Assembly (NCBI GenBank): GCA_963666205.1 | Contig: OY762654.1 | Location: forward strand, 646,611 to 710,610 | DNA from: Synergistales bacterium | GTDB taxonomy: Bacteria; Synergistota; Synergistia; Synergistales; JAFGMB01 | Direction of reading: 5' to 3' | Length of the DNA stretch: 64,000 bases | Shown here: one piece after another, positions 1,679 through 62,174 of the stretch | Layout: each line of letters opens with the position of its first letter | How positions within the stretch are numbered: position 1 is the first letter of the stretch | Translations under genes and position numbers: made by a program | The notes under the pieces: generated by a model | What the model was told of the DNA's origin: nothing | Databases searched by the model: none | Seen by the model: only the letters and a program-made list of their open reading frames with translations

Positions 1679-1775
1679 CAGGTTCGAGTCATGTCTGATT
1701 GAATATAATATAAAAAAAGACGATCAGGAAATCTGACCGTCTTGTCATATTCTGGCTCCTCGGGCAGGACTCGAA
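1679..1775 (-). repeat. Direct repeat copy 2 (97 bp, identical to 1420-1516)
   Basis: Base-for-base identical to copy 1. It overlaps the 3' end of the intact tRNA-Asn and its terminator. Confidence 0.9.
1711..1742 (-). terminator. Rho-independent terminator of the tRNA array (duplicate copy at 1452-1483)
   Basis: Minus strand: AGACGGTCAG-ATTTC-CTGATCGTCT followed by TTTTTTT, directly 3' of tRNA-Asn. Confidence 0.7.
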
Positions 1776-1828
1776 CCTGCGACCTAGTGGTTAACAGCCA
1801 CCCGCTCTGCCAATTGAGCTACCGAGGA
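1753..1828 (-). tRNA. tRNA-Asn (GTT)
   Basis: 76 nt. Reverse complement TCCTCGGTAGCTCAATTGGCAGAGCGGGTGGCTGTTAACCACTAGGTCGCAGGTTCGAGTCCTGCCCGAGGAGCCA. Cloverleaf pairs, anticodon loop CT-GTT-AA, encoded CCA. Confidence 0.95.
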
Positions 1829-1855
1829 ATATTGAAACATATTGTATATATTTAG

Positions 1856-1929
1856 TGGAGGCGGCACCCGGATTCGAACCGGGGATAAAGGATTTGCAGT
1901 CCTCTGCCTTACCACTTGGCTATGCCGCC
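1856..1929 (-). tRNA. tRNA-Cys (GCA)
   Basis: 74 nt. Acceptor GGCGGCA/TGCCGCC, anticodon loop CT-GCA-AA, T-loop GGTTCGAATCC, CCA encoded. Confidence 0.95.
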
Positions 1930-1946
1930 AACAAATTTTCAGGTAA

Positions 1947-2021
1947 TGGAGCGGAAAACGGGATTCGAACCCGCGACCCCAACCTTGGCAAGGTTGTGCT
2001 CTACCGCTGAGCTATTTCCGC
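1947..2021 (-). tRNA. tRNA-Gly (GCC)
   Basis: 75 nt. Acceptor GCGGAAA/TTTCCGC, anticodon stem CAACC/GGTTG with loop TT-GCC-AA, CCA encoded. Confidence 0.95.
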
Positions 2022-2043
2022 CCGTCATTTATCGTTATCAAAA

Positions 2044-2119
<76 letters not shown>

Positions 2120-2140
2120 TCAGTGATAAGGACAAATAAA

Positions 2141-2217
2141 TGGCGGGGCTGACGAGACTCGAACTCGCGACCTCCGGCGTGACAGGCCGGCGCTCTAACC
2201 GACTGAGCTACAACCCC
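2141..2217 (-). tRNA. tRNA-Asp (GTC)
   Basis: 77 nt. Acceptor GGGGTTG/CAGCCCC (one G-U pair), anticodon stem CCGGC/GCCGG with loop CT-GTC-AC, CCA encoded. Confidence 0.93.
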
Positions 2218-2253
2218 GCATTGCAAAGATTATCAATGTCCTGCTTTAAACAA

Positions 2254-2328
2254 TGGTGGGCGGAACAGGGTTCGAACCTGTGACCCCCTGCGTGTAAGGC
2301 AGGTGTTCTTCCGCTGAACTATCCGCCC
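2254..2328 (-). tRNA. tRNA-Val (TAC)
   Basis: 75 nt. Acceptor GGGCGGA/TCCGCCC, anticodon stem CCTGC/GCAGG with loop CT-TAC-AC, CCA encoded. Confidence 0.95.
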
Positions 2329-7850: not shown

Positions 7851-8254
7851 CCATTAGTATCTTAATCGTAAAAAGAAATATTATATAGTCCTTTATTACT
7901 ATGTCGAGGAAATTGGCCTATTTCTACATTTCTAAGGCCCATTACACTTGCCATTTGAATCAAAAGTTTATGAGAAAAGGATTGATAACAGAAAAACCCT
8001 TCGGTTGCCCAAAGGGAAGTATAGACCCAATAAGCAGCCCGGCTGTCATAGTTAAAACACTTTAGACCCGCAGCTTTGCGTCACCACCTTTCGATGGTTT
8101 TGCCTATATAATTATACAATGTAACTCTAGGGCTTTAAGGGGGTTTGTCAATCACACTTTAGCAGTGTGAATATTCACTTTAAGGATGCAGAATCAACAT
8201 AGAGAAATCGGGGGGAATTTTAAAAAAGGAAAGATAACTGGTCTGTATAAATTC

Positions 8255-13286: not shown

Positions 13287-13362
13287 TGGAGCCGACTTCC
13301 GGACTCGAACCGGAGACCCCATCCTTACCATGGATGTGCTCTACCTACTGAGCTAAGTCGGC
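13287..13362 (-). tRNA. tRNA-Thr (GGT)
   Basis: 76 nt. Acceptor GCCGACT/AGTCGGC, anticodon stem CATCC/GGATG with loop AT-GGT-AA, CCA encoded. Confidence 0.93.
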
Positions 13363-13376
13363 CCGTTGTTAAGGAA

Positions 13377-13461
13377 TGGTGGTGGGAGAAGGATTCGAAC
13401 CTTCGTAGACGGAGTCGGCAGATTTACAGTCTGCTGCCTTTGACCACTCGGCCATCCCACC
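13377..13461 (-). tRNA. tRNA-Tyr (GTA)
   Basis: 85 nt with a long variable arm. GGTGGGATGGCCGAGTGGTCAAAGGCAGCAGACTGTAAATCTGCCGACTCCGTC..., CCA encoded. Confidence 0.93.
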
Positions 13462-13481
13462 ACTACTCAGCTTTGTTTTCA

Positions 13482-13557
13482 TGGAGCCGGCGATCCGACT
13501 TGAACGGACGACCTGCTGATTACAAGTCAGCTGCTCTACCAACTGAGCTACACCGGC
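13482..13557 (-). tRNA. tRNA-Thr (TGT)
   Basis: 76 nt. GCCGGTGTAGCTCAGTTGGTAGAGCAGCTGACTTGTAATCAGC..., anticodon TGT, CCA encoded. Confidence 0.93.
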
Positions 13558-35155: not shown

Positions 35156-35428
35156 TAGGTCAACCTCTCTCCTCTGTAATATACCGATACAGCCAGACAG
35201 TACATATTTTCTTTTTATCAGTTAATAAGTATATCACTTATTTCCGACACTCGTTAAATGATATTAATATGTGAATATTAAGCAATATATAATATATAAC
35301 TAGTTAGAAAACAAGGGGAGGAAAGAACAGAGACAAAGAAGACTTTTCAATTATTCCAGGGAAAGATCGGGAATAGGGAATCCTGAAAAGACTGGACCAG
35401 ATATCATGTTTACCATAAGAAAAAGACC

Positions 35429-35544
35429 TCTGGCAGCGACCTACTCTCCCACGGATACCCTCCGCAGTACCATCGGCGCTGGAGGGCTTAACTGCCGGGT
35501 TCGGCATGGAACCGGGTGTACCCCCTCCGCTATTACCACCAGAG
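35429..35544 (-). rRNA. rrf: 5S rRNA, distal copy (ends approximate)
   Basis: Reverse complement TCTGGTGGTAATAGCGGAGGGGGTACACCCGGTTCCATGCCGAACCCGGCAGTTAAGCCCTCCAGCGCCGATGGTACTGCGGAGGGTATCCGTGGGAGAGTAGGTCGCTGCCAGA. Helix I pairs. Confidence 0.9.
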
Positions 35545-35595
35545 ATCTTCTAAAAGAAATCAGCACTTAAAGTTGTGTAAAAAGCAAAAAAGGTT

Positions 35596-35710
35596 TCTGG
35601 CAGCGACCTACTCTCCCACGGATACCCTCCGCAGTACCATCGGCGCTGGAGGGCTTAACTGCCGGGTTCGGCATGGAACCGGGTGTACCCCCTCCGCTAT
35701 TACCACCAGA
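35596..35710 (-). rRNA. rrf: 5S rRNA, proximal copy (ends approximate)
   Basis: Same sequence as the distal copy, 167 bp upstream. It is flanked by an extended processing stem GGTTTCTGG/CCAGAAACC. Confidence 0.9.
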
Positions 35711-35780
35711 AACCTTATTTAAATCTATACCCGTACGGGTCAAGACAGAAGAACAAGGTGTTTTACTTAAATCAGTAGAA

Positions 35781-38776
<2,996 letters not shown>

Positions 38777-38903
38777 ACATTCTACTGATTTAAGTAACTT
38801 CACCTATTCTGCTGTCAAGGTCCTGTACGGGCAGTTCTTATAGACAGGTAAAAGAAAGAATAACTCACCATCATTTCGTGTTACATAAGCCCCTGAGGGC
38901 TCT

Positions 38904-40443
<1,540 letters not shown>

Positions 40444-54660: not shown

Positions 54661-55119
54661 GTGGATTTGTTGTTAAGGACAGGTTCAGCAGTTTTATATC
54701 TTGCTGTTATAACTTTAGGATTGAAGTTTCCATTGCTGGGAATACTTGTTTTCGGGATTCTCGGCGTAATGGTTCTGGCAGGTCGAAGAAAGAAATGGTG
54801 TTCAAGTTACTGCCCAAGGGGGAGTTTCCTTGATCTTCTTATTTCCAGGATCTCACCACGAAAACCCATACCACGGTGGTTCTTCGGCAAATTTTCGCGA
54901 TATTCTGCCCTCACCATTTTTATTACTATATTCCTGTTACAGCTCTGGCGGGGACAGTTCTTTTTCGGATGGCCCGATAATGGATTAATACAACTGGGCA
55001 AGATATTTGTCAGGATGTGCATTATATCCTCCGGTGTAGCCATTCCCCTGGCTCTATGGAAAAATCAGAGAACGTGGTGTTCCTTGTGCCCGGTAGGAAA
55101 CCTTCTCAGAAGGATATAG
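54661..55119 (+). CDS. Membrane protein with two Cys-x3-Cys-Pro motifs (4Fe-4S binding-domain family)
   Basis: 152 aa, GTG start. Hydrophobic segments plus CSSYCPRGSFLD and CSLCPVGNLL. Confidence 0.5.
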   Translation: MDLLLRTGSAVLYLAVITLGLKFPLLGILVFGILGVMVLAGRRKKWCSSYCPRGSFLDLLISRISPRKPIPRWFFGKFSRYSALTIFITIFLLQLWRGQFFFGWPDNGLIQLGKIFVRMCIISSGVAIPLALWKNQRTWCSLCPVGNLLRRI

Positions 55120-55193: not shown

Positions 55194-56006
55194 TCAGGAT
55201 ACCTGGTCATCAAAGGAAAGCTTTATAACCGCTTCAGAATTAATGACCCTGAATGTGAAGGACTCTGTCACGAACAGTCTTACTTTCTCTGTCGTTCTGC
55301 TGTGGTATCCTATGGAATAATCCTGGCCAATTATCATCTCCATATCGCCACCCCTGGTTGAGACCAGATAGGACTGATCAATGGAAGGAGAAAGGATTAC
55401 ACCTCCATCCGCAATCGATTCTATCCTTTTTTTCAGGGGATATCCCTCTGATTTGCTCAGAATCATATGCCAGAGATCTTTATCTGCTACAAGGGTATAT
55501 GGCCCTTCGACCGAATCTGAATCAAATTTGATCACGGCTCTTGAAAGAAGATCAACTACTCTGTTTCTGGAGCCGGAAATGATGTTCTCTTCCGCTACAG
55601 CAGAGATACCCTTTATAAATGCTGTATCCAGACCATTGTAAATGGTTTCTTCCTCGAAAAGAGCCATTTTACGGACAGCCTTTTCCAGACCTGAAAGATC
55701 GGGATCCTTTGATCCCCTGGAAATATTATCGAGCTCCCATACATCAAGCTCAAAAAAAGCGCGACCTTCTACAAGAGGCATAACCTGGTGTATGCCATAC
55801 TGGACCCCATCTTCTTCCTGATCAGGGGGAACGGATAGTCGACCCATGGAAGTGGCTGCATAATCCCAGCCGAAAGGTCCTCTTACATCTATAAATTTCC
55901 TTGCCGAAAGGTTGGATCTGAGTATTCTCGATGCCTGGAGATCTATCTCTCCCCACGCCTCCTCAGTTATATTAGAAACTGTCCTTTTAAGGATGTCCAT
56001 ATACAT
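55194..56006 (-). CDS. Family 1 encapsulin nanocompartment shell protein (linocin M18-like)
   Basis: 270 aa. MDILKRTVSNITEEAWGEIDLQASRILRSNLSARKFIDVRGPFGWDYAA... is collinear with the T. maritima encapsulin N-terminus (LKRS..PLT..QW.EID..A......L.GRKFVDV.GP.GW.YAA). Confidence 0.85.
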   Translation of the reverse strand: MYMDILKRTVSNITEEAWGEIDLQASRILRSNLSARKFIDVRGPFGWDYAATSMGRLSVPPDQEEDGVQYGIHQVMPLVEGRAFFELDVWELDNISRGSKDPDLSGLEKAVRKMALFEEETIYNGLDTAFIKGISAVAEENIISGSRNRVVDLLSRAVIKFDSDSVEGPYTLVADKDLWHMILSKSEGYPLKKRIESIADGGVILSPSIDQSYLVSTRGGDMEMIIGQDYSIGYHSRTTEKVRLFVTESFTFRVINSEAVIKLSFDDQVS

Positions 56007-56031: not shown

Positions 56032-56382
56032 TTATTTAAGACTCCCTATATTAAGGCTCCCACCAGATACTGGCCTACTATCCGTTGCAGCTTCAGTATC
56101 TTCTATCTCTGTAACCGGAACAGAAGTAAAAAGGTACGTACGTAATTCATCTTCCCATGCAGGCATATTTCTTCGAAGCCATTCTATTACCATACAGGCA
56201 TGTTCTATTTCTTCATTACGGTTATGCTCAAGAATGGCCTTGAGCGTTGGATCCTGGGTTGTAGCTACTCGCTGATGATACCAGTCCACAGCTTCAATCT
56301 CTTCTTTAAGGCTGTTTAAGGCACGAGAAAAATCTCTGTCCTGTTGATTGAGCTCTTCCGCAGGTTCATTATATGCTGACAT
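56032..56382 (-). CDS. Encapsulated ferritin-like protein (EncFtn/Flp cargo) with C-terminal targeting peptide
   Basis: 116 aa. Ferritin-like di-iron residues (EEIEAVDWY..., NRNEEIEHACMVIEWL). The flexible tail ends GGSLNIGSLK, which matches the encapsulin cargo-loading peptide consensus (G-S-L-x-I-G-S-L-K). It lies 25 nt upstream of the shell gene. Confidence 0.8.
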   Translation of the reverse strand: MSAYNEPAEELNQQDRDFSRALNSLKEEIEAVDWYHQRVATTQDPTLKAILEHNRNEEIEHACMVIEWLRRNMPAWEDELRTYLFTSVPVTEIEDTEAATDSRPVSGGSLNIGSLK

Positions 56383-56433: not shown

Positions 56434-56461
56434 ATTATATCGCGACAGAGTATTAATTCAA
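56434..56461 (-). promoter_or_regulatory. Candidate promoter of the flp-encapsulin operon
   Basis: Minus strand: TTGAAT (56461-56456), 16 nt, TATAAT (56439-56434), ~50 nt upstream of the flp ATG. Confidence 0.55.
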
Positions 56462-56524: not shown

Positions 56525-57703
56525 TCAGGAACGGGAACTGAGCATTTTTTCCAATCGGTCTATCCTGAAATAGATCAGATCATCAATAAATTGCACGTGG
56601 TTGAGGGGATTACCGGACATACCAAAGAGATGGGAGGGGCAATTACATTCATATGTTCCAAAACAGGGAATTGACCATTCTGCTATGCTGGAAATAGCAC
56701 TGACAAGGGCACCTTCCAGGTTATCCGCTGTGCGGATAGGTATGATTGTAACAATATCTGCCTTATTTCTCAGATAGTCTATATGCCAAGACAAGTTTGT
56801 TCTTTTTCGACGATGTCTTTCCATCATTGAATCAAGATTTTTCTCCTCAGATTGCACGTAGACATAGAAACCTTTCCTGAAATCAAGCTCTCCCAGACTT
56901 CCTACCGTTTCCTTAATGTCATGTTTCAACTCAAGTATAACCATGTAGCAACCCCTGTCGCCGGAATCCTGCTCATATATATTCCATGGAATTTCAAGCT
57001 CTTTTACCTCATTGTTCAGAAACAGATTATAATCCCATGAAACTGAAACGGCTCTGATCCTGATCACGTTGCGGTTTTTGAAAAGTACTTCTGCAAAGAG
57101 GGGATCAGTATGATATTCAGGGAGGAAAAATTCCGGCTCGGGGGAATGCACGAGGAAAAGAACAGAAACCTGATATCCCTTTCTTCCGAGGACAGCCAGT
57201 TCACTGACATGCCTGACAGCCCTTCTGGAAGGTGCATCTGGAAACATGGCTATTCTTTTCCCAAAGAGGGAACAGGATTTCACCTCAAGAATCATTTGAT
57301 TTTCTTCCCCCTCTAAAAGAAAATCAAAACGACTTTTTCCCAGGGTATACTCCTGTCTGATTACATGATAATTTACTAATGAAGGTATCCTTTTATTGTC
57401 GAGGAGCCAGCGGACAGCATGGTTAGATGTATGAGTGTTAAGCATTACAGTAGTGCCCTTCTTTTTTATACCTATCAGAGTATAACCTGTAGTTCTAGTT
57501 CTGGAGGGCTGATTAATTGAAAGTAAAACAGGGGACCCTGGAAATAGCAACTCCCAGAGCCTGCCGGGATTAGGAAGAAATACCTTTATCAGAGAACCGT
57601 TCAATTCACATTCCACAAGGAATCTGTTAATACGTCTGAGGAAGATGGATTCAACTACATTTTCGGTAGATGCAACTCTGAATACTGTGTCAGAAGGATA
57701 CAT
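56525..57703 (-). CDS. sfsA: Fusion protein: SfsA (OB + PD-(D/E)xK nuclease-like) N-terminal part and DUF123 (GIY-YIG superfamily) C-terminal part
   Basis: 392 aa. Residues ~15-240 match SfsA (RRINRFLVECELNG, SRFDFLL, ILEVKSCSL, FPDAPSRRAVRHVSEL). Residues ~250-392 match DUF123 (GCYMVILEL..., GFYVYVQSE..L..M.ERHRRKRTNLSWHIDYL). Confidence 0.75.
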   Translation of the reverse strand: MYPSDTVFRVASTENVVESIFLRRINRFLVECELNGSLIKVFLPNPGRLWELLFPGSPVLLSINQPSRTRTTGYTLIGIKKKGTTVMLNTHTSNHAVRWLLDNKRIPSLVNYHVIRQEYTLGKSRFDFLLEGEENQMILEVKSCSLFGKRIAMFPDAPSRRAVRHVSELAVLGRKGYQVSVLFLVHSPEPEFFLPEYHTDPLFAEVLFKNRNVIRIRAVSVSWDYNLFLNNEVKELEIPWNIYEQDSGDRGCYMVILELKHDIKETVGSLGELDFRKGFYVYVQSEEKNLDSMMERHRRKRTNLSWHIDYLRNKADIVTIIPIRTADNLEGALVSAISSIAEWSIPCFGTYECNCPSHLFGMSGNPLNHVQFIDDLIYFRIDRLEKMLSSRS

Positions 57704-57752
57704 GGGATAATATCTTATTTTTTCAGTATTATTATGAAAACAGGATTGATGA

Positions 57753-58214
57753 TCATTTACATATCAGTCTGGCTACTAATGGTACTGTTAACAAAACGAT
57801 TATTATCCTTATGACGTGGAAAAGTATAACTACCGGAGCATTTGCCCCCAATTCAGCAGCAGCCAGGCCAAGGCCTGAAAGACCTCCCGGGGGCATGGCA
57901 AAAAGAGCAGTGAAAAGATCTATCCCAAGATAACGGGAACATAACCAGGCTAACAGAATACTGAAACCAAGAAGGATAAAACTATAGCATACCGCTATAG
58001 GAACGATCGACGGCAGAGTTTTCATGGTTGAAATATCAGAACTTGCAACAATAACATAGGCTACCAGCATCTGGGTCACTATAGAAAGGATCCTTGTATT
58101 ATGGGACGGGACCCCTGATATGGCTTTATATAAAAGGCCTGCTATCAAACCACCTACAAGTACCCCTGCAGGAACTTTCATTACAAGACCTGAAAGACCT
58201 CCCAGAAAAACCAT
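57753..58214 (-). CDS. AbrB-family (PF05145-type) membrane protein, single-repeat form; start uncertain
   Basis: I prefer the start at MVFLGGLSGLVMKVPAGVLVGG, because the mmd-operon terminator hairpin (58328-58349) lies inside the longer 208-aa ORF. C-terminal FAMPPGGLSGLGLAAAELGAN motif. Confidence 0.5.
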   Translation of the reverse strand: MVFLGGLSGLVMKVPAGVLVGGLIAGLLYKAISGVPSHNTRILSIVTQMLVAYVIVASSDISTMKTLPSIVPIAVCYSFILLGFSILLAWLCSRYLGIDLFTALFAMPPGGLSGLGLAAAELGANAPVVILFHVIRIIIVLLTVPLVARLICK

Positions 58215-58349: not shown

Positions 58350-58394
58350 AAATAATACCCTAACTTTTGAGAAATACAACTTATGAGATTATCT

Positions 58395-59513
58395 TCAGCT
58401 CAACAGAGTAAGCATAACCCCGGCAGCGACGGCAGTACCGATTACTCCGGCCACATTCGGACCCATGGCATGCATGAGGAGGAAATTGCTGGGGTTCTCC
58501 TGCTGGCATATTCTCTGGACCACCCTGGCGGCCATGGGGACGGCACTCACTCCTGCCGCTCCTATCATGGGATTTATCTTTCCCCCGCTTATTATCTTCA
58601 TAAGCTGGCCGAAGAGGGTTCCTCCGGCGGTGCTGAAGATGAAGGCCACCAGTCCCAGAAGTATTATCTTCAGAGTTCCCAGGGTCAGGAAATATTCGGC
58701 ACTCATTGTGGCTCCTACCGACAGTCCGAGGAAGATGGTGGTGGCATTGAGTATCTCGTTCTGGGCCGCCTGGTTGAGCCTTTCCGTAACTCCGCATTCC
58801 CGGAGAAGGTTGCCGAACATGAGCACTCCTATGAGGGGTACACTTGCCGGCAGGATAAGGCCGGCTGCTATGGTGCATATGACGGGAAAGAGCACTCTCT
58901 CAAGCTTGCTAACAGGACGGAGATTGTCCATCCTTATGGCACGGTCCTCCTTCGTGGTAAGCATCCTTATCACGGGCGGCTGAATGAGGGGCACCAGGGC
59001 CATGTAGCTGTAGGCCGCCACCGCTACGGCTCCCAGTATCTGGGGTGCCAGCTTGATGGTCAGGTATATGCTCGTGGGACCGTCCGCTCCTCCTATGATG
59101 GCTATGGAGGCTGCTTCCTTCACGCTGAAACCGAGCATGAGCGCTCCGAAGAGGGCTATGAATACTCCCAGCTGCGCCGCCGCTCCAAGAAGAAAGGTTA
59201 TGGGGTTGGCCAGAAGGGGCGCAAAGTCCGTCAGCGCTCCCACTCCCATGAAGATTATTACGGGATATATCTCGTGCTGGGTTCCGAAAAATATGTAATA
59301 CAGAAATCCGCCTTCGTCCATTATCCCCGACAGAGGCAGGTTAACAAGGAGGCATCCGAAGGCTATGGGTACGAGCAGAAGGGGCTCGAATCCCTTCCTT
59401 ATGGCCAGGTAGAGCATGACGAAGGCCACAAGGAGCATGGTGATGTTACCTCCACTTATGCCGGCAAAGCCGGATTCGTTCATTATCTTGACAAGTGCTT
59501 CAAAATATACCAT
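58395..59513 (-). CDS. mmdB: Na+-translocating decarboxylase beta subunit (MmdB/OadB/GcdB family)
   Basis: 372 aa polytopic protein. IAFGCLLVNLP, IGGADGPTSIY, MGPNVAGVIGTAVAAG: the OAD_beta family pattern. Confidence 0.9.
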   Translation of the reverse strand: MVYFEALVKIMNESGFAGISGGNITMLLVAFVMLYLAIRKGFEPLLLVPIAFGCLLVNLPLSGIMDEGGFLYYIFFGTQHEIYPVIIFMGVGALTDFAPLLANPITFLLGAAAQLGVFIALFGALMLGFSVKEAASIAIIGGADGPTSIYLTIKLAPQILGAVAVAAYSYMALVPLIQPPVIRMLTTKEDRAIRMDNLRPVSKLERVLFPVICTIAAGLILPASVPLIGVLMFGNLLRECGVTERLNQAAQNEILNATTIFLGLSVGATMSAEYFLTLGTLKIILLGLVAFIFSTAGGTLFGQLMKIISGGKINPMIGAAGVSAVPMAARVVQRICQQENPSNFLLMHAMGPNVAGVIGTAVAAGVMLTLLS

Positions 59514-59584
59514 AGGGGCGTTTCTCCCTCCTTTGTCCTCTTTCCTGTTTCCCAGTCCGGTAACTGGTTAAAGGGGAGGGACTT

Positions 59585-59992
59585 CTAGCCTATCACTAAC
59601 AGAAGGTCTCCGGTGTTTACGGAGTCACCGTCATGTGCCCTTACTTCCTTCACTGTGCCGCCGGCGGGAGCAAGTATCTCGTTCTCCATCTTCATGGCTT
59701 CCAGAACCAGAAGAAGATCCCCTGCGTTCACCGCTGCTCCACTCTGGACAACCACCCTCAGTACCTTGCCGGGCATGGGGGCGGATATCTCCGTTCCCTC
59801 TACGGGGCCTGCCGGTGCCGGCGCTGCTGCTGGTTTGGGGGCAGGAGATGCTGCCGGCGCCGCTGCTGGTGCCGCTACTGCTGCCGTAACTGGTGCTGGG
59901 CTCGATGATGCGGGTGCACTGCTGCCTCCGAGTTCTTCCACTTCTACTTCGTAACTCGTTCCATCTACGGTCACTCTGTATTTCTTTGCCAT
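59585..59992 (-). CDS. mmdC: Biotin carboxyl carrier subunit of the decarboxylase (MmdC)
   Basis: 135 aa. Ala/Pro-rich linker and a biotinyl domain with LLVLEAMKMENEI (biotinyl-Lys motif). Confidence 0.88.
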   Translation of the reverse strand: MAKKYRVTVDGTSYEVEVEELGGSSAPASSSPAPVTAAVAAPAAAPAASPAPKPAAAPAPAGPVEGTEISAPMPGKVLRVVVQSGAAVNAGDLLLVLEAMKMENEILAPAGGTVKEVRAHDGDSVNTGDLLLVIG

Positions 59993-60025
59993 CTTATCTT
60001 CCTCCCGGACTTCCCACCTATGTTG

Positions 60026-60057
60026 GATTTTAGATTTTAGATTTTAGATTTTAGATT
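60026..60057. repeat. 7-bp tandem repeat (GATTTTA) x4.6 in the mmdD-mmdC intergenic spacer
   Basis: GATTTTAGATTTTAGATTTTAGATTTTAGATT read directly. Four perfect units plus a partial one. Confidence 0.95.
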
Positions 60058-60153
60058 AAGGCCATTCAGAAACGCTGAAAACATTCAAACAGTTTAAAAC
60101 GTTTATATCCTTCGATCAGTCTGTCCCAGGGGGGGCAGTTTAATTCCCCGTCC

Positions 60154-60588
60154 TCAGGCCTTCCTCTTCCAGGGGTCCTTTACCATTCCCTGGTAGTTCT
60201 CCAGAAGGGCACTGGCCCTCCAGCCTCCTGAAAGAGTTCCCCTTACCCCACTGCCTGCGGGCGTTATGCTCTTTATCCTTACTGCCCTGCCTGTGGAGGC
60301 GAGGATGGCTGCACTTATGGCCGCTGCCAGCTTCCCTCCTTCAGGGGTCGACGGCGCTCGGGATGATACCTCTGCTGCCGGGCTTTCCTTCGGGGGGGCT
60401 GACTTTACCCTTTCCCCTCCCCTGGGGGGGGTGACTCCCTTATTACCCATTCCTCCTCCGAGGGCTGCCAGATACTTCACACAGTAGATAATGAGGGTCA
60501 GTCCTCCAAGTACCAGAAAGACCGTAGAAAAGGCTATGAGGGCGAGGCTCAGGGCCCCTCCTATTCCGTTGCTGAACTGGTTGCCCAT
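60154..60588 (-). CDS. mmdD: Decarboxylase small membrane-anchor subunit (OadG/MmdD-like)
   Basis: 144 aa. A single N-terminal TM (LSLALIAFSTVFLVLGGLTLIIYCV), a Pro/Ala-rich linker, and a position between the alpha and biotin-carrier genes. Confidence 0.6.
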   Translation of the reverse strand: MGNQFSNGIGGALSLALIAFSTVFLVLGGLTLIIYCVKYLAALGGGMGNKGVTPPRGGERVKSAPPKESPAAEVSSRAPSTPEGGKLAAAISAAILASTGRAVRIKSITPAGSGVRGTLSGGWRASALLENYQGMVKDPWKRKA

Positions 60589-60614
60589 GGTGTGTCTCTC
60601 TCCTCCCTCGTCCC

Positions 60615-62174
60615 CTACTGGGGCATTACGGAATGTTTCTTCCGGGGCAGGCTTTCCCTCTTGCCTTCCGTGGCCTTGAGGGCTTCGTAGATCTCACCTC
60701 GGGTCTCTTCCGGAAGGATAACCCTGTCTACCAGTCCTCGCTTGGCTGCCTGGTAGGGGTTGGCAAAGGCTTCCCTGTATTCATCTATCTTCTGCTGCCT
60801 CTCTAGCTGCTGGTCCGCCGCTTTCTCGATTTCCTTACGAAATACTATGTTCGCGGCTCCTTCGGCTCCCATAACGGCTATCTCTGCCTGGGGCCAGGCA
60901 AGTACCATGTCAGCTCCAAGGGCCTTGCTGCACATTCCCAGGTAGGCTCCTCCATAGCTCTTCCGAAGGACTACCGTGATCAGGGGTACTGTGGCTTCGC
61001 TGTAGGCGTAAAGAAGCTTGGCTCCATGCCTTATAATACCGCCCCATTCCTGCGCGGTACCGGGTAGATAGCCGGGTACGTCCACAAAGGTCACTATGGG
61101 TATGTTGAAGGCATCGCAGTGGCGGATAAAACGGCTGGCCTTGTCTGAACAGTCTATGTCCAGGCAGCCTGCCATGTTGCTGGCCTGGTTGGCCACTATG
61201 CCCACTGCTTTCCCTCCGATCCTTCCGTAACCGGTGACTATGTTCTTCGCCCAGAGAGCCTGCACTTCAAAAAAACGGCCATCGTCAAGCACTCTCTTCA
61301 GTACTTCATGAACATGGTAACTCTTGTTCGGGTTCGTGGGCACTATGTTCCTGAGTTCCAGATCCCTCCGGTAGGGATCGTCATCGCTCTCCTTAACGGG
61401 CGCATCCTCCATGTTGTTGGAGGGCAGGTAACCAAGTACTGTCCTTACCTGTTCAAAACATTCCTGCTCGCTCTTCGCAAAAAAATGGGCGTTCCCGCTG
61501 CGGCTGTTGTGCGCCATGGCTCCGCCTATCTGTTCGCTGGTAACTTCCTCTCCCGTGACCGCCTTGATCACGGCGGGCCCCGTTATATGCATTATCCCCG
61601 TCTTGTCCACCATGAAAATGTAGTCCGTCAGCGCTGGACTGTAAACAGCACCTCCCGCTGTGGGACCTACTATCACTGACAGCTGGGGAATTACTCCGCT
61701 GGCTATGGTGTTACGGTAAAATATACCACCGTATCCGTCCAGTGAATCCACCGCTTCCTGGATCCTCGCTCCTCCACTGTCGTTGATGCCTACTACAGGG
61801 GCTCCGTTCCTCATCGCAAGGTCCATTACCTTCCAGATCTTGTGGGCATGCTTCTCTCCCAATGAACCTCCCAGTACAGTGAAATCCTGGCTGTATACGT
61901 ATACCGGACGACCTTCCACTGTCCCCCAGCCCGTCACTACTCCGTCCCCGGGATATACCTTGCTCTCCATTCCAAAATGGCTGCAGCGGTGCTCCACAAA
62001 TTCGTCTATCTCTATAAAACTGCCTGCGTCAAGTAATAGCTCTATCCTCTCCCGCGCCGTCAGCTTACCCTTAGACTTCTGCTTCTCTATCGCCCCGGGA
62101 CCGCCTCCCTCGCGGACCTGCTCTCGCTTCGCCTCCAATTGCTCACATAGTTCGTCTATATGCCTCTCCGACAT
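60615..62174 (-). CDS. mmdA: Methylmalonyl-CoA decarboxylase alpha subunit (carboxyltransferase, PccB family)
   Basis: 519 aa. Carboxyl_trans domain (GKLTARERIELLLD, INDSGGARIQE, GPTAGGAVYSPALTD, RKSYGGAYLGM). Confidence 0.92.
   Translation of the reverse strand: MSERHIDELCEQLEAKREQVREGGGPGAIEKQKSKGKLTARERIELLLDAGSFIEIDEFVEHRCSHFGMESKVYPGDGVVTGWGTVEGRPVYVYSQDFTVLGGSLGEKHAHKIWKVMDLAMRNGAPVVGINDSGGARIQEAVDSLDGYGGIFYRNTIASGVIPQLSVIVGPTAGGAVYSPALTDYIFMVDKTGIMHITGPAVIKAVTGEEVTSEQIGGAMAHNSRSGNAHFFAKSEQECFEQVRTVLGYLPSNNMEDAPVKESDDDPYRRDLELRNIVPTNPNKSYHVHEVLKRVLDDGRFFEVQALWAKNIVTGYGRIGGKAVGIVANQASNMAGCLDIDCSDKASRFIRHCDAFNIPIVTFVDVPGYLPGTAQEWGGIIRHGAKLLYAYSEATVPLITVVLRKSYGGAYLGMCSKALGADMVLAWPQAEIAVMGAEGAANIVFRKEIEKAADQQLERQQKIDEYREAFANPYQAAKRGLVDRVILPEETRGEIYEALKATEGKRESLPRKKHSVMPQ

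Follow-up and report, generated by a model that had tools for sequence, protein, structure and literature searches.

The window analysed here is a stretch of 64,000 nucleotides from a Synergistales bacterium (contig OY762654.1 of GenBank assembly GCA_963666205.1, positions 646,611 to 710,610 of the forward strand), and this work concerns one of its genes, a single open reading frame (ORF) on the minus strand in which a complete SfsA protein is fused to a DUF123 domain of the GIY-YIG type, next to the genes of an encapsulin system. SfsA and DUF123 are widespread families with nuclease folds, and to our knowledge neither has an established cellular role. The gene, and the parts into which its product of 392 amino acids (aa) can be divided, are the following:

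56525..57703, minus strand: SfsA-DUF123 fusion ORF, 392 aa plus stop (ORF call, Pfam, NCBIfam, homologues, AlphaFold2 model)
57443..57640, minus strand: SfsA N-terminal OB-fold domain, residues 22-87 (PF17746; within the Foldseek match to 4dav_A and 4dap)
57038..57430, minus strand: SfsA PD-(D/E)XK nuclease domain, residues 92-222 (PF03749; D127, E140 and K142 present)
56954..57037, minus strand: inter-domain connector, residues 223-250, with W223, L227, I238-P239-W240 and D249 (column conservation; strands and a helix modelled with high confidence)
56618..56953, minus strand: DUF123 (GIY-YIG-type) domain, residues 251-362 (PF01986; conservation; hhalign to I-TevI)
56528..56617, minus strand: C-terminal helix of the pattern NP...F...L..FR.dRLE, residues 363-392 (conservation; helix 370-389 in the AlphaFold2 model)

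The reading frame starts with ATG and, in the ORF listing, runs without stop or frameshift between its SfsA and DUF123 halves. Its translation contains all the peptides (NRFLVEC, SRFDFLL, EVKSCSL, FPDAPSRRAVRHVSEL, GFYVYVQSE and ERHRRKRTNLSWHIDYL) from which a sequence-only reading of this DNA, made without database searches, had recognised a covalent fusion of the two families. Pfam finds SfsA_N (PF17746) at residues 22-87 (E=1e-18), the SfsA RE domain (PF03749) at 92-222 (E=6.9e-33) and DUF123 (PF01986) at 274-360 (E=1.1e-14, 55 bits against a cutoff of 25; the close relative P0002 reaches 82 bits), and the NCBIfam sfsA equivalog TIGR00230 scores 156.9 bits against a cutoff of 126.45. At 231 and 234 aa, the chains of the solved SfsA structures fall about 165 aa short of the fusion protein, so that the C-terminal extension is real; moreover, homologues of 380-395 aa are collinear with the query over 93-100% of its length, and the fusion is therefore not an assembly artefact. 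In other words, the fusion of a complete SfsA (OB fold plus PD-(D/E)XK) with DUF123 is confirmed and chance is excluded: a break that would make two genes of one, a refutation foreseen by the earlier reading, was looked for and is not there, and the profile searches that it proposed recover both families. The connector is specific to the fusion subfamily, and its residues, together with P366, F372 and R380 of the C-terminal helix, are among the best-conserved positions of the family; these last three are nearly invariant even in relatives without GIY-YIG motifs.

The full-length structure prediction suggested earlier was also carried out. The AlphaFold2 (AF2) model, built from a 37-sequence alignment, has a mean predicted local distance difference test score (pLDDT) of 94.9 and a predicted template modelling score of 0.91, values from which a compact multi-domain body is predicted, rather than beads on a string; the AF2 model of the DUF123 domain has a pLDDT of 93. 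In a Foldseek search, residues ~1-235 superpose on P. furiosus SfsA with DNA (4dav_A, E=1.5e-24, TMt 0.90, root-mean-square deviation 2.2) and the same part matches E. coli SfsA (4dap, E=6.7e-21, TMt 0.88), with NucS/EndoMS among the lower-ranking matches of the protein; a five-strand region of the model lies at the N-terminal OB-fold domain. By profile, the N-terminal part aligns to both solved SfsA sequences (E~1e-46). A DUF123 profile run against PDB sequences gave spurious matches only (E>1), and no DUF123 structure was found by sequence.

The sequence-only reading had taken the fusion for something unusual, a view that the databases do not bear out. A search of 5.8 billion proteins returned 2465 matches to the fusion protein, and the best 120 of them all carry PF17746, PF03749 and PF01986, at 44-90% identity and with lengths of 372-427 aa, save for one 256-aa contig fragment. 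These best 120 matches come from metagenome-assembled genomes (MAGs) of Nitrospirota, Syntrophales, Syntrophobacterales and Thermodesulfovibrionales and the only names given to any of them are 'sugar fermentation stimulation protein A' and 'DNA/RNA nuclease SfsA'. A complete HMMER scan of 1.84 billion cluster representatives (50% identity) yielded 294 proteins at E<=1e-30; among the best 150 representatives, 117 have the full-length size of 360-430 aa. At least 580 candidate loci were confirmed in a scan of one genome per GTDB species; among the best 80 of these every match extends to residue 383 or further, and their sources are Nitrospirota, Syntrophia, Syntrophorhabdia, Thermodesulfovibrionia and Synergistota, with a few labelled Bacillota, Chloroflexota or 'Ca. 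Hakubella'. Given the domain content of the best matches and the cluster and genome counts, this is a large subfamily (at least 117 full-length clusters and at least 80 species genomes), already visible in public Pfam annotations and named only 'SfsA'. The window gene is, on sequence grounds, a genuine member of this 'long SfsA' subfamily, which is common in anaerobic bacteria; the host of the window copy is an Acetomicrobium-like member of the Synergistota. Among the papers searched, none names both DUF123 and SfsA; the survey of GIY-YIG domains lists a single fusion of COG1833, that with Endonuclease III, and not the one with SfsA (PMC1564403), which is absent also from two surveys of PD-(D/E)XK enzymes (PMC1189080, PMC3424549). 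A fusion that is common and predicted to be rigid makes a well-behaved target for biochemistry and structure work.

Two single loci deserve mention in this context. At L088:3346-4549 a frameshift splits the fusion gene, whose SfsA part goes uncalled while the remainder is called as a 182-aa 'DUF123' protein, and many of the short 'DUF123-only' database entries named SfsA are probably fragments of this kind. At L161:4248-5423 a 391-aa fusion was recovered with a profile of stand-alone, mostly methanogen-type, DUF123 proteins.

Conservation was counted residue by residue after 236 full-length homologues had been aligned with MAFFT. The PD-(D/E)XK motif of SfsA has been defined as D...EVK (ID-EVK) (PMC1189080), and the query has D127 (57323-57325), E140 (57284-57286), V141 and K142 (57278-57280), as checked at the codons. 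D127, E140, K142, D156, R161, H165, H198 and D200 are essentially invariant in the alignment and all present in the window protein; the eight-residue SfsA core is complete there and in 110 of the 117 full-length clusters. Judged by these residues, the SfsA PD-(D/E)XK site is intact.

As to the DUF123 half, Pfam, we understand, assigns the family to the GIY-YIG clan. Stand-alone DUF123 proteins also pass the threshold of the GIY-YIG model PF01541 (25.8-27.3 bits against 22.6). On these grounds, together with an hhalign match to I-TevI and published fold-recognition work (PMC1564403), DUF123 is assigned to the GIY-YIG superfamily. In the query this half departs from near-invariant residues at seven positions, each 78-88% conserved in the fusions:

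56852-56854, minus strand: G284Q (G in 207/236 homologues)
A286E (A in 194/236 homologues)
56825-56827, minus strand: R293M (R in 201/236 homologues)
K302T (K in 205/236 homologues)
56711-56713, minus strand: C/H331G (C or H in 191/236 homologues)
S351Y (S in 185/236 homologues)
D352E (D in 195/236 homologues)

None of 16 stand-alone DUF123 proteins varies at six of these positions, and at least 90% of them keep A286. The characteristic Y-x-Y-V-G-S-A reads YVYVQSE in the query; hence the observation of the sequence-only reading that QSE stands in place of GSA was right, as the counts for G284 and A286 attest. Its suggestion that the domain could be catalytically altered is plausible too, but the motif change alone understates the case, which comprises seven substitutions including R293M and C/H331G. 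In particular, hhalign places M293 opposite R27 of I-TevI, the segment YvYvGSA..L..R..RH matching I-TevI residues 15-34, and the query thus has Met where the GIY-YIG superfamily has its essential helix-1 Arg (R27 of I-TevI and I-BmoI). Four residues, Y17, R27, E74 and N87, are critical in GIY-YIG enzymes, mutation of any one having abolished cleavage in several of them, and R27A is the standard inactive mutant (PMC2853131). R293M is accordingly more telling than the change of GSA to QSE, and the altered DUF123 motif plausibly affects catalysis.

The substitutions stand among a number of retained residues, namely Y253 and Y282 (the two tyrosines of the GIY-YIG motif), R296, H297, H307, D309, E330, C353, C355 and H358. 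E330, kept in 206/236 homologues, is equated with E75 of I-TevI only by its position in the helix after strand 3. In the Cys/His cluster (E-C/H ... S-D-C-x-C-x-S-H), the query keeps C353, C355 and H358 and has Gly at C/H331 and Y-E for S-D, which leaves three of four putative ligands. Five of the seven changes (Q284, M293, T302, Y351 and E352) are shared with P0001, a relative of 90% identity from independent assemblies, and are therefore not sequencing errors; since the next relatives, at 55-64% identity, keep the consensus, they arose within a short lineage. E286, G331 and also V334 occur in the window copy only.

Selection on the two halves was compared by the ratio of non-synonymous to synonymous substitution rates (dN/dS, Nei-Gojobori, window against L001). 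The SfsA part gives 0.18 and the DUF123 part 0.27, with 0.10 for encapsulin (Enc), 0.10 for EncFtn and 0.17 for Usp as controls from neighbouring genes; the DUF123 part is somewhat relaxed yet clearly under purifying selection. At the scale of the subfamily, the 12-residue GIY/DUF123 core is complete in 54 of the 117 clusters, whereas in 36 of them five or more of its residues are lost with the SfsA site unchanged (cases drawn from cluster representatives P0121-P0270, for example P0168, P0169, P0153 and P0157). Two degenerate relatives that no longer match DUF123 in Pfam have tails still homologous to it (hhalign 97% and 72%) and keep the PiRt strand and the NP..F..L..R.dRLE helix. Relatives have thus repeatedly kept the domain after losing its GIY-YIG signature, and the window protein would be an early or intermediate case. 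Many independent complete motif losses suggest that catalysis by the DUF123 domain is dispensable, and the invariance of the SfsA site, set against the often degenerate GIY-YIG site, points to SfsA as the indispensable activity and to DUF123 as an accessory.

The reading that we favour, with a probability of about 60%, is that the gene encodes an SfsA nuclease with an intact site, in which a crippled GIY-YIG domain is kept as a structural or binding module, without any coupling to the encapsulin. Specifically, the GIY-YIG site would be catalytically crippled in this lineage, where Met replaces the R27-equivalent Arg, Gln the Gly of YVG, and Gly one putative metal ligand. With that site crippled, nucleic-acid cleavage would fall to the PD-(D/E)XK site of SfsA, and the protein would act on nucleic acid through this site and the OB fold, while the C-terminal domain, preserved by purifying selection, may hold the substrate in position as a structural or nucleic-acid-binding module. 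Relatives whose GIY-YIG site is intact would probably make two incisions on one DNA substrate, by analogy with UvrC or with the fusions of Endonuclease III and DUF123. Some points weigh against our reading. The pairing of R293 with R27 comes from a 20-column hhalign match of 61% probability, plus the literal similarity of the motif (YVGSA..R..RH); Y253, Y282, H297 and E330 are retained, and R296, R298 and R299 on the same helix might compensate for R293M; finally, a dN/dS of 0.27 indicates constraint and is silent on what the constraint serves. An apt annotation would be 'SfsA family nuclease with C-terminal DUF123 (GIY-YIG-like, probably inactive) domain'.

The same retained residues lend themselves to the alternative that both nuclease domains are active, as in a dual-incision or structure-specific nuclease of the kind that its consensus relatives would be, the substitutions having retuned specificity and R296, R298 or R299 having replaced R293. 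All ten of the conserved positions listed above, the Arg-rich helix ERHRRKR and the purifying selection on the DUF123 domain would fit such an enzyme. We consider it unlikely, as the R27-equivalent Arg is invariant in stand-alone DUF123, is R in most fusions and cannot be replaced by Ala elsewhere without loss of activity; as seven near-invariant positions have all changed within a single short lineage, a putative metal ligand being lost among them; and as complete motif losses have occurred independently many times in the family.

A comparison of alleles bears on the remaining possibilities. The closest genome locus, L008, with flanks 95-99% identical to those of the window gene, belongs to an Acetomicrobium hydrogeniformans MAG (Synergistota), and L092 comes from an independent metagenome. 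Both match the window at 95-100% identity downstream from ~56,600, but identity falls to 51-69% over the fusion gene and over the 3' part of its 5' neighbour, the gene for an AbrB-duplication membrane protein. Over this segment they resemble L003 instead (85-93% identity), a locus that in its flanks shares only ~60-80% identity with the window. The protein comparisons agree: the fusion protein of L008 is 63% identical to that of the window and 84% to that of L003, and its Enc is 99% identical to that of the window and 72% to that of L003. The limits of the segment are:

window ~56,650-58,200; L008:1-1567; L092:1-1434; L003:1-1821: divergent segment

This looks like a recombinational replacement of ~1.5 kb, which would have brought a consensus GIY-YIG allele into the same species background. 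The divergent allele is found in two datasets, which makes a chimeric MAG improbable. In L008, ~300 bp of the AbrB-like gene are also missing.

A more far-reaching proposal, which we also consider unlikely, is that SfsA-DUF123 is a widespread dual-incision DNA repair or structure-specific nuclease of anaerobic bacteria, with SfsA as the obligatory and GIY-YIG as an optional second cutter, and that the Acetomicrobium alleles are crippled (window, P0001) or intact and imported (L008, L092). If true, the Acetomicrobium allele pair would represent a natural on/off experiment that could reveal the role of SfsA.

That the C-terminal half is decaying, the gene heading towards a plain SfsA or a pseudogene, could be argued from the concentration of radical substitutions in the DUF123 half, from its higher dN/dS and from the frameshifted copy at L088. 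We hold this to be very improbable: the ORF is intact in the window and in P0001, the ratio of 0.27 is far from neutral, the DUF123 domain is modelled with confidence, the connector and C-terminal helix are fully conserved, and even in fully degenerate relatives the domain has not been shortened.

GIY-YIG domains are typical of homing endonucleases (PMC1564403), and two alleles ~37% divergent in protein between flanks of 95-100% identity might suggest a mobile or conflict nuclease, homing-endonuclease-like or anti-phage, whose alleles reflect diversifying or selfish dynamics. Such an origin is scarcely tenable. The gene is single-copy in the window, its dN/dS lies well below 1, and the recurring neighbours at 78 distant loci are housekeeping genes, with integrases and defence genes not among them; the second allele, at 84% identity to L003, is the neighbouring lineage's orthologue, which fits ordinary homologous recombination. 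An origin from defence systems or phages in particular was rejected, PADLOC and PHROG scans having given no match.

The least credible alternative concerns the genes on the 3' side, where a possible functional link to the encapsulin nanocompartment had been offered as mere speculation. The elements in question are the following:

56434..56461, minus strand: promoter-like TTGAAT-16-TATAAT, 10/12 consensus match, between the fusion gene and encFtn
56032-56382, minus strand: EncFtn
55194-56006, same strand: family-1 encapsulin

The identity of both genes, described earlier as flp-encapsulin, is confirmed by domain matches, and the separate TTGAAT-16-TATAAT lies where it had been reported. The link was examined at nine close and 78 distant loci by tblastn with EncFtn, Enc, AbrB, Usp and Fer4_5, by neighbour clustering and by Pfam. 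What speaks for the fusion protein being a cargo, a regulator or a co-transcribed partner of EncFtn/Enc is that its gene lies on the same strand directly upstream, with a gap of 142 bp to EncFtn, and that the order AbrB-fusion-EncFtn-Enc-(Fer4_5)-Usp-acyltransferase-...-CLC-patatin-ProRS is kept in nine related Synergistota loci, even where the fusion protein is only 49% identical. In those nine syntenic loci, however, the whole 10-kb block is conserved, with Usp, acyltransferase, CLC, patatin and ProRS, which indicates shared ancestry and not an operon. EncFtn, Enc, AbrB and Usp were found by tblastn at 0 of the 78 distant loci, within fetched flanks of up to 6 kb. No neighbour family there is common to more than ~25% of the loci examined, and the recurring ones (DUF3568, rhomboid, SLOG/LOG-like, RumA-like methyltransferase, MotB, TraB, MFS transporter, PilZ and Ffh) are housekeeping genes.

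The promoter-like element also speaks against co-transcription, since a conserved -10 box precedes encFtn. It is the best match of the region, where the number of such sites equals chance expectation; its TATAAT box (56434-56439) is kept in 7 of 8 related loci, the rest of the spacer being 55% identical. The element would thus mark the start of a separate encFtn-enc transcription unit, with no part in the function of the fusion gene itself. In addition, EncFtn ends in ...SGGSLNIGSLK and the fusion protein in ...RLEKMLSSRS (FRIDRLEKMLSSRS); the tail ...GSLNIGSLK is, we take it, of the family-1 encapsulin cargo-loading type, and comparison with it revealed no cargo-loading peptide at the C-terminus of the fusion protein. 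Since the adjacency is limited to one clade, the -10 box is conserved and the fusion protein lacks a loading tail, the encapsulin link is not supported. The fusion gene would be a stand-alone gene of housekeeping type, its adjacency to encFtn-enc a clade-specific synteny, and it is not to be counted within the encapsulin system. In the same neighbourhood, a small membrane protein with a Fer4_5 domain is encoded between the encapsulin and Usp genes (54661-55119, plus strand), for which tblastn was negative in L003, L006 and L007 of the same syntenic clade.

The rest of the window contains several further features:

35428-40442, minus strand: bacterial rRNA operon in the order 16S-23S-5S-5S, with tandem 5S genes at 35428-35543 and 35595-35710
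8030-8114, minus strand: c-di-GMP-I riboswitch aptamer, 79 bits
9333-9489, minus strand: L10 leader
1756-2328, minus strand: cluster of six tRNA genes
13290-13557, minus strand: cluster of three tRNA genes
58395-62174, minus strand: apparent Na+-translocating decarboxylase gene set (from translations only)
58383-59588, plus strand: long ORF antisense to the first decarboxylase gene, probably spurious

The 16S-23S spacer measures only 135 bp, with no tRNA reported inside it. Four proteins make up the apparent decarboxylase set: a polytopic membrane protein of 372 aa, a biotin carrier of 135 aa that has the AMKM motif and a linker rich in Ala and Pro, a small membrane protein, and a carboxyltransferase of 519 aa.

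Among known systems, the N-terminal 225 residues of the fusion protein resemble SfsA itself (COG1489, TIGR00230; PDB 4DAP from E. coli, 4DA2/4DAV from P. furiosus) in their OB fold and D...EVK PD-(D/E)XK site. Canonical SfsA ends at ~231-234 aa, whereas the fusion protein adds the connector, the DUF123 domain and the C-terminal helix.

The second half is the same domain as in the stand-alone DUF123/COG1833 proteins, 'Uri superfamily endonucleases' of ~130-150 aa that are mainly archaeal, with which it has in common the motifs G.Y ... Y.YVGSA ... R..RH ... K ... WHIDYL ... EC ... FGsSDC.C.SHL. Unlike in these proteins, the window domain sits behind SfsA and has seven conserved positions substituted, six of which are invariant there (G, R, K, C, S-D). 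At 78 of 80 metagenome loci with stand-alone DUF123 genes no SfsA lies in the available flank; of the two with an SfsA-like match, L161 is itself the fusion described above, and L170 has it as an opposite-strand neighbour (L170:5001-6709, the two genes being ~760 bp apart). The general partnership of SfsA and DUF123 that a Rosetta-stone argument would lead one to expect accordingly finds no support. The earlier argument that covalent fusion implies action on the same nucleic-acid substrate is likewise weakened, about half of the clusters showing partial or complete loss of the GIY-YIG signature alongside a preserved SfsA site, and DUF123-SfsA adjacency being so rare. The recurring neighbours of stand-alone DUF123 (NifH-like, DUF371, CutA1, U32 peptidase, PurF and ThiI-like) correspond to methanogen housekeeping synteny. 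L089 is a true bacterial stand-alone DUF123. Next to the stand-alone DUF123 gene of Methanobrevibacter (L090/L091:4001-8420) lie, on the other strand and in convergent orientation, a 163-aa ORF and the genes of a HerA-like ATPase (DUF87/HerA_C) and a DEAD/DUF5814 helicase.

UvrC, in which a GIY-YIG domain is combined with an RNase H-like endonuclease domain, provides a precedent for two nuclease folds in one polypeptide and for dual incision, although the likeness would be one of principle only; COG1833 clusters nearest to the UvrC lineage (PMC1564403). The fusion protein differs from UvrC by having neither UvrB-binding nor HhH domains and by a different second nuclease fold, and the GIY-YIG Arg is missing from the window copy. 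A closer parallel in architecture is found in the Endonuclease III-DUF123 proteins of Methanococcales (MJ0613, MMP0538), where DUF123 is likewise C-terminal to another DNA-processing enzyme and which are the basis of a proposed two-cut repair mechanism (PMC1564403). There the partner is a glycosylase/AP lyase, whereas in the window protein it is a PD-(D/E)XK nuclease with an OB fold, and the SfsA-DUF123 fusion is bacterial and far more widespread.

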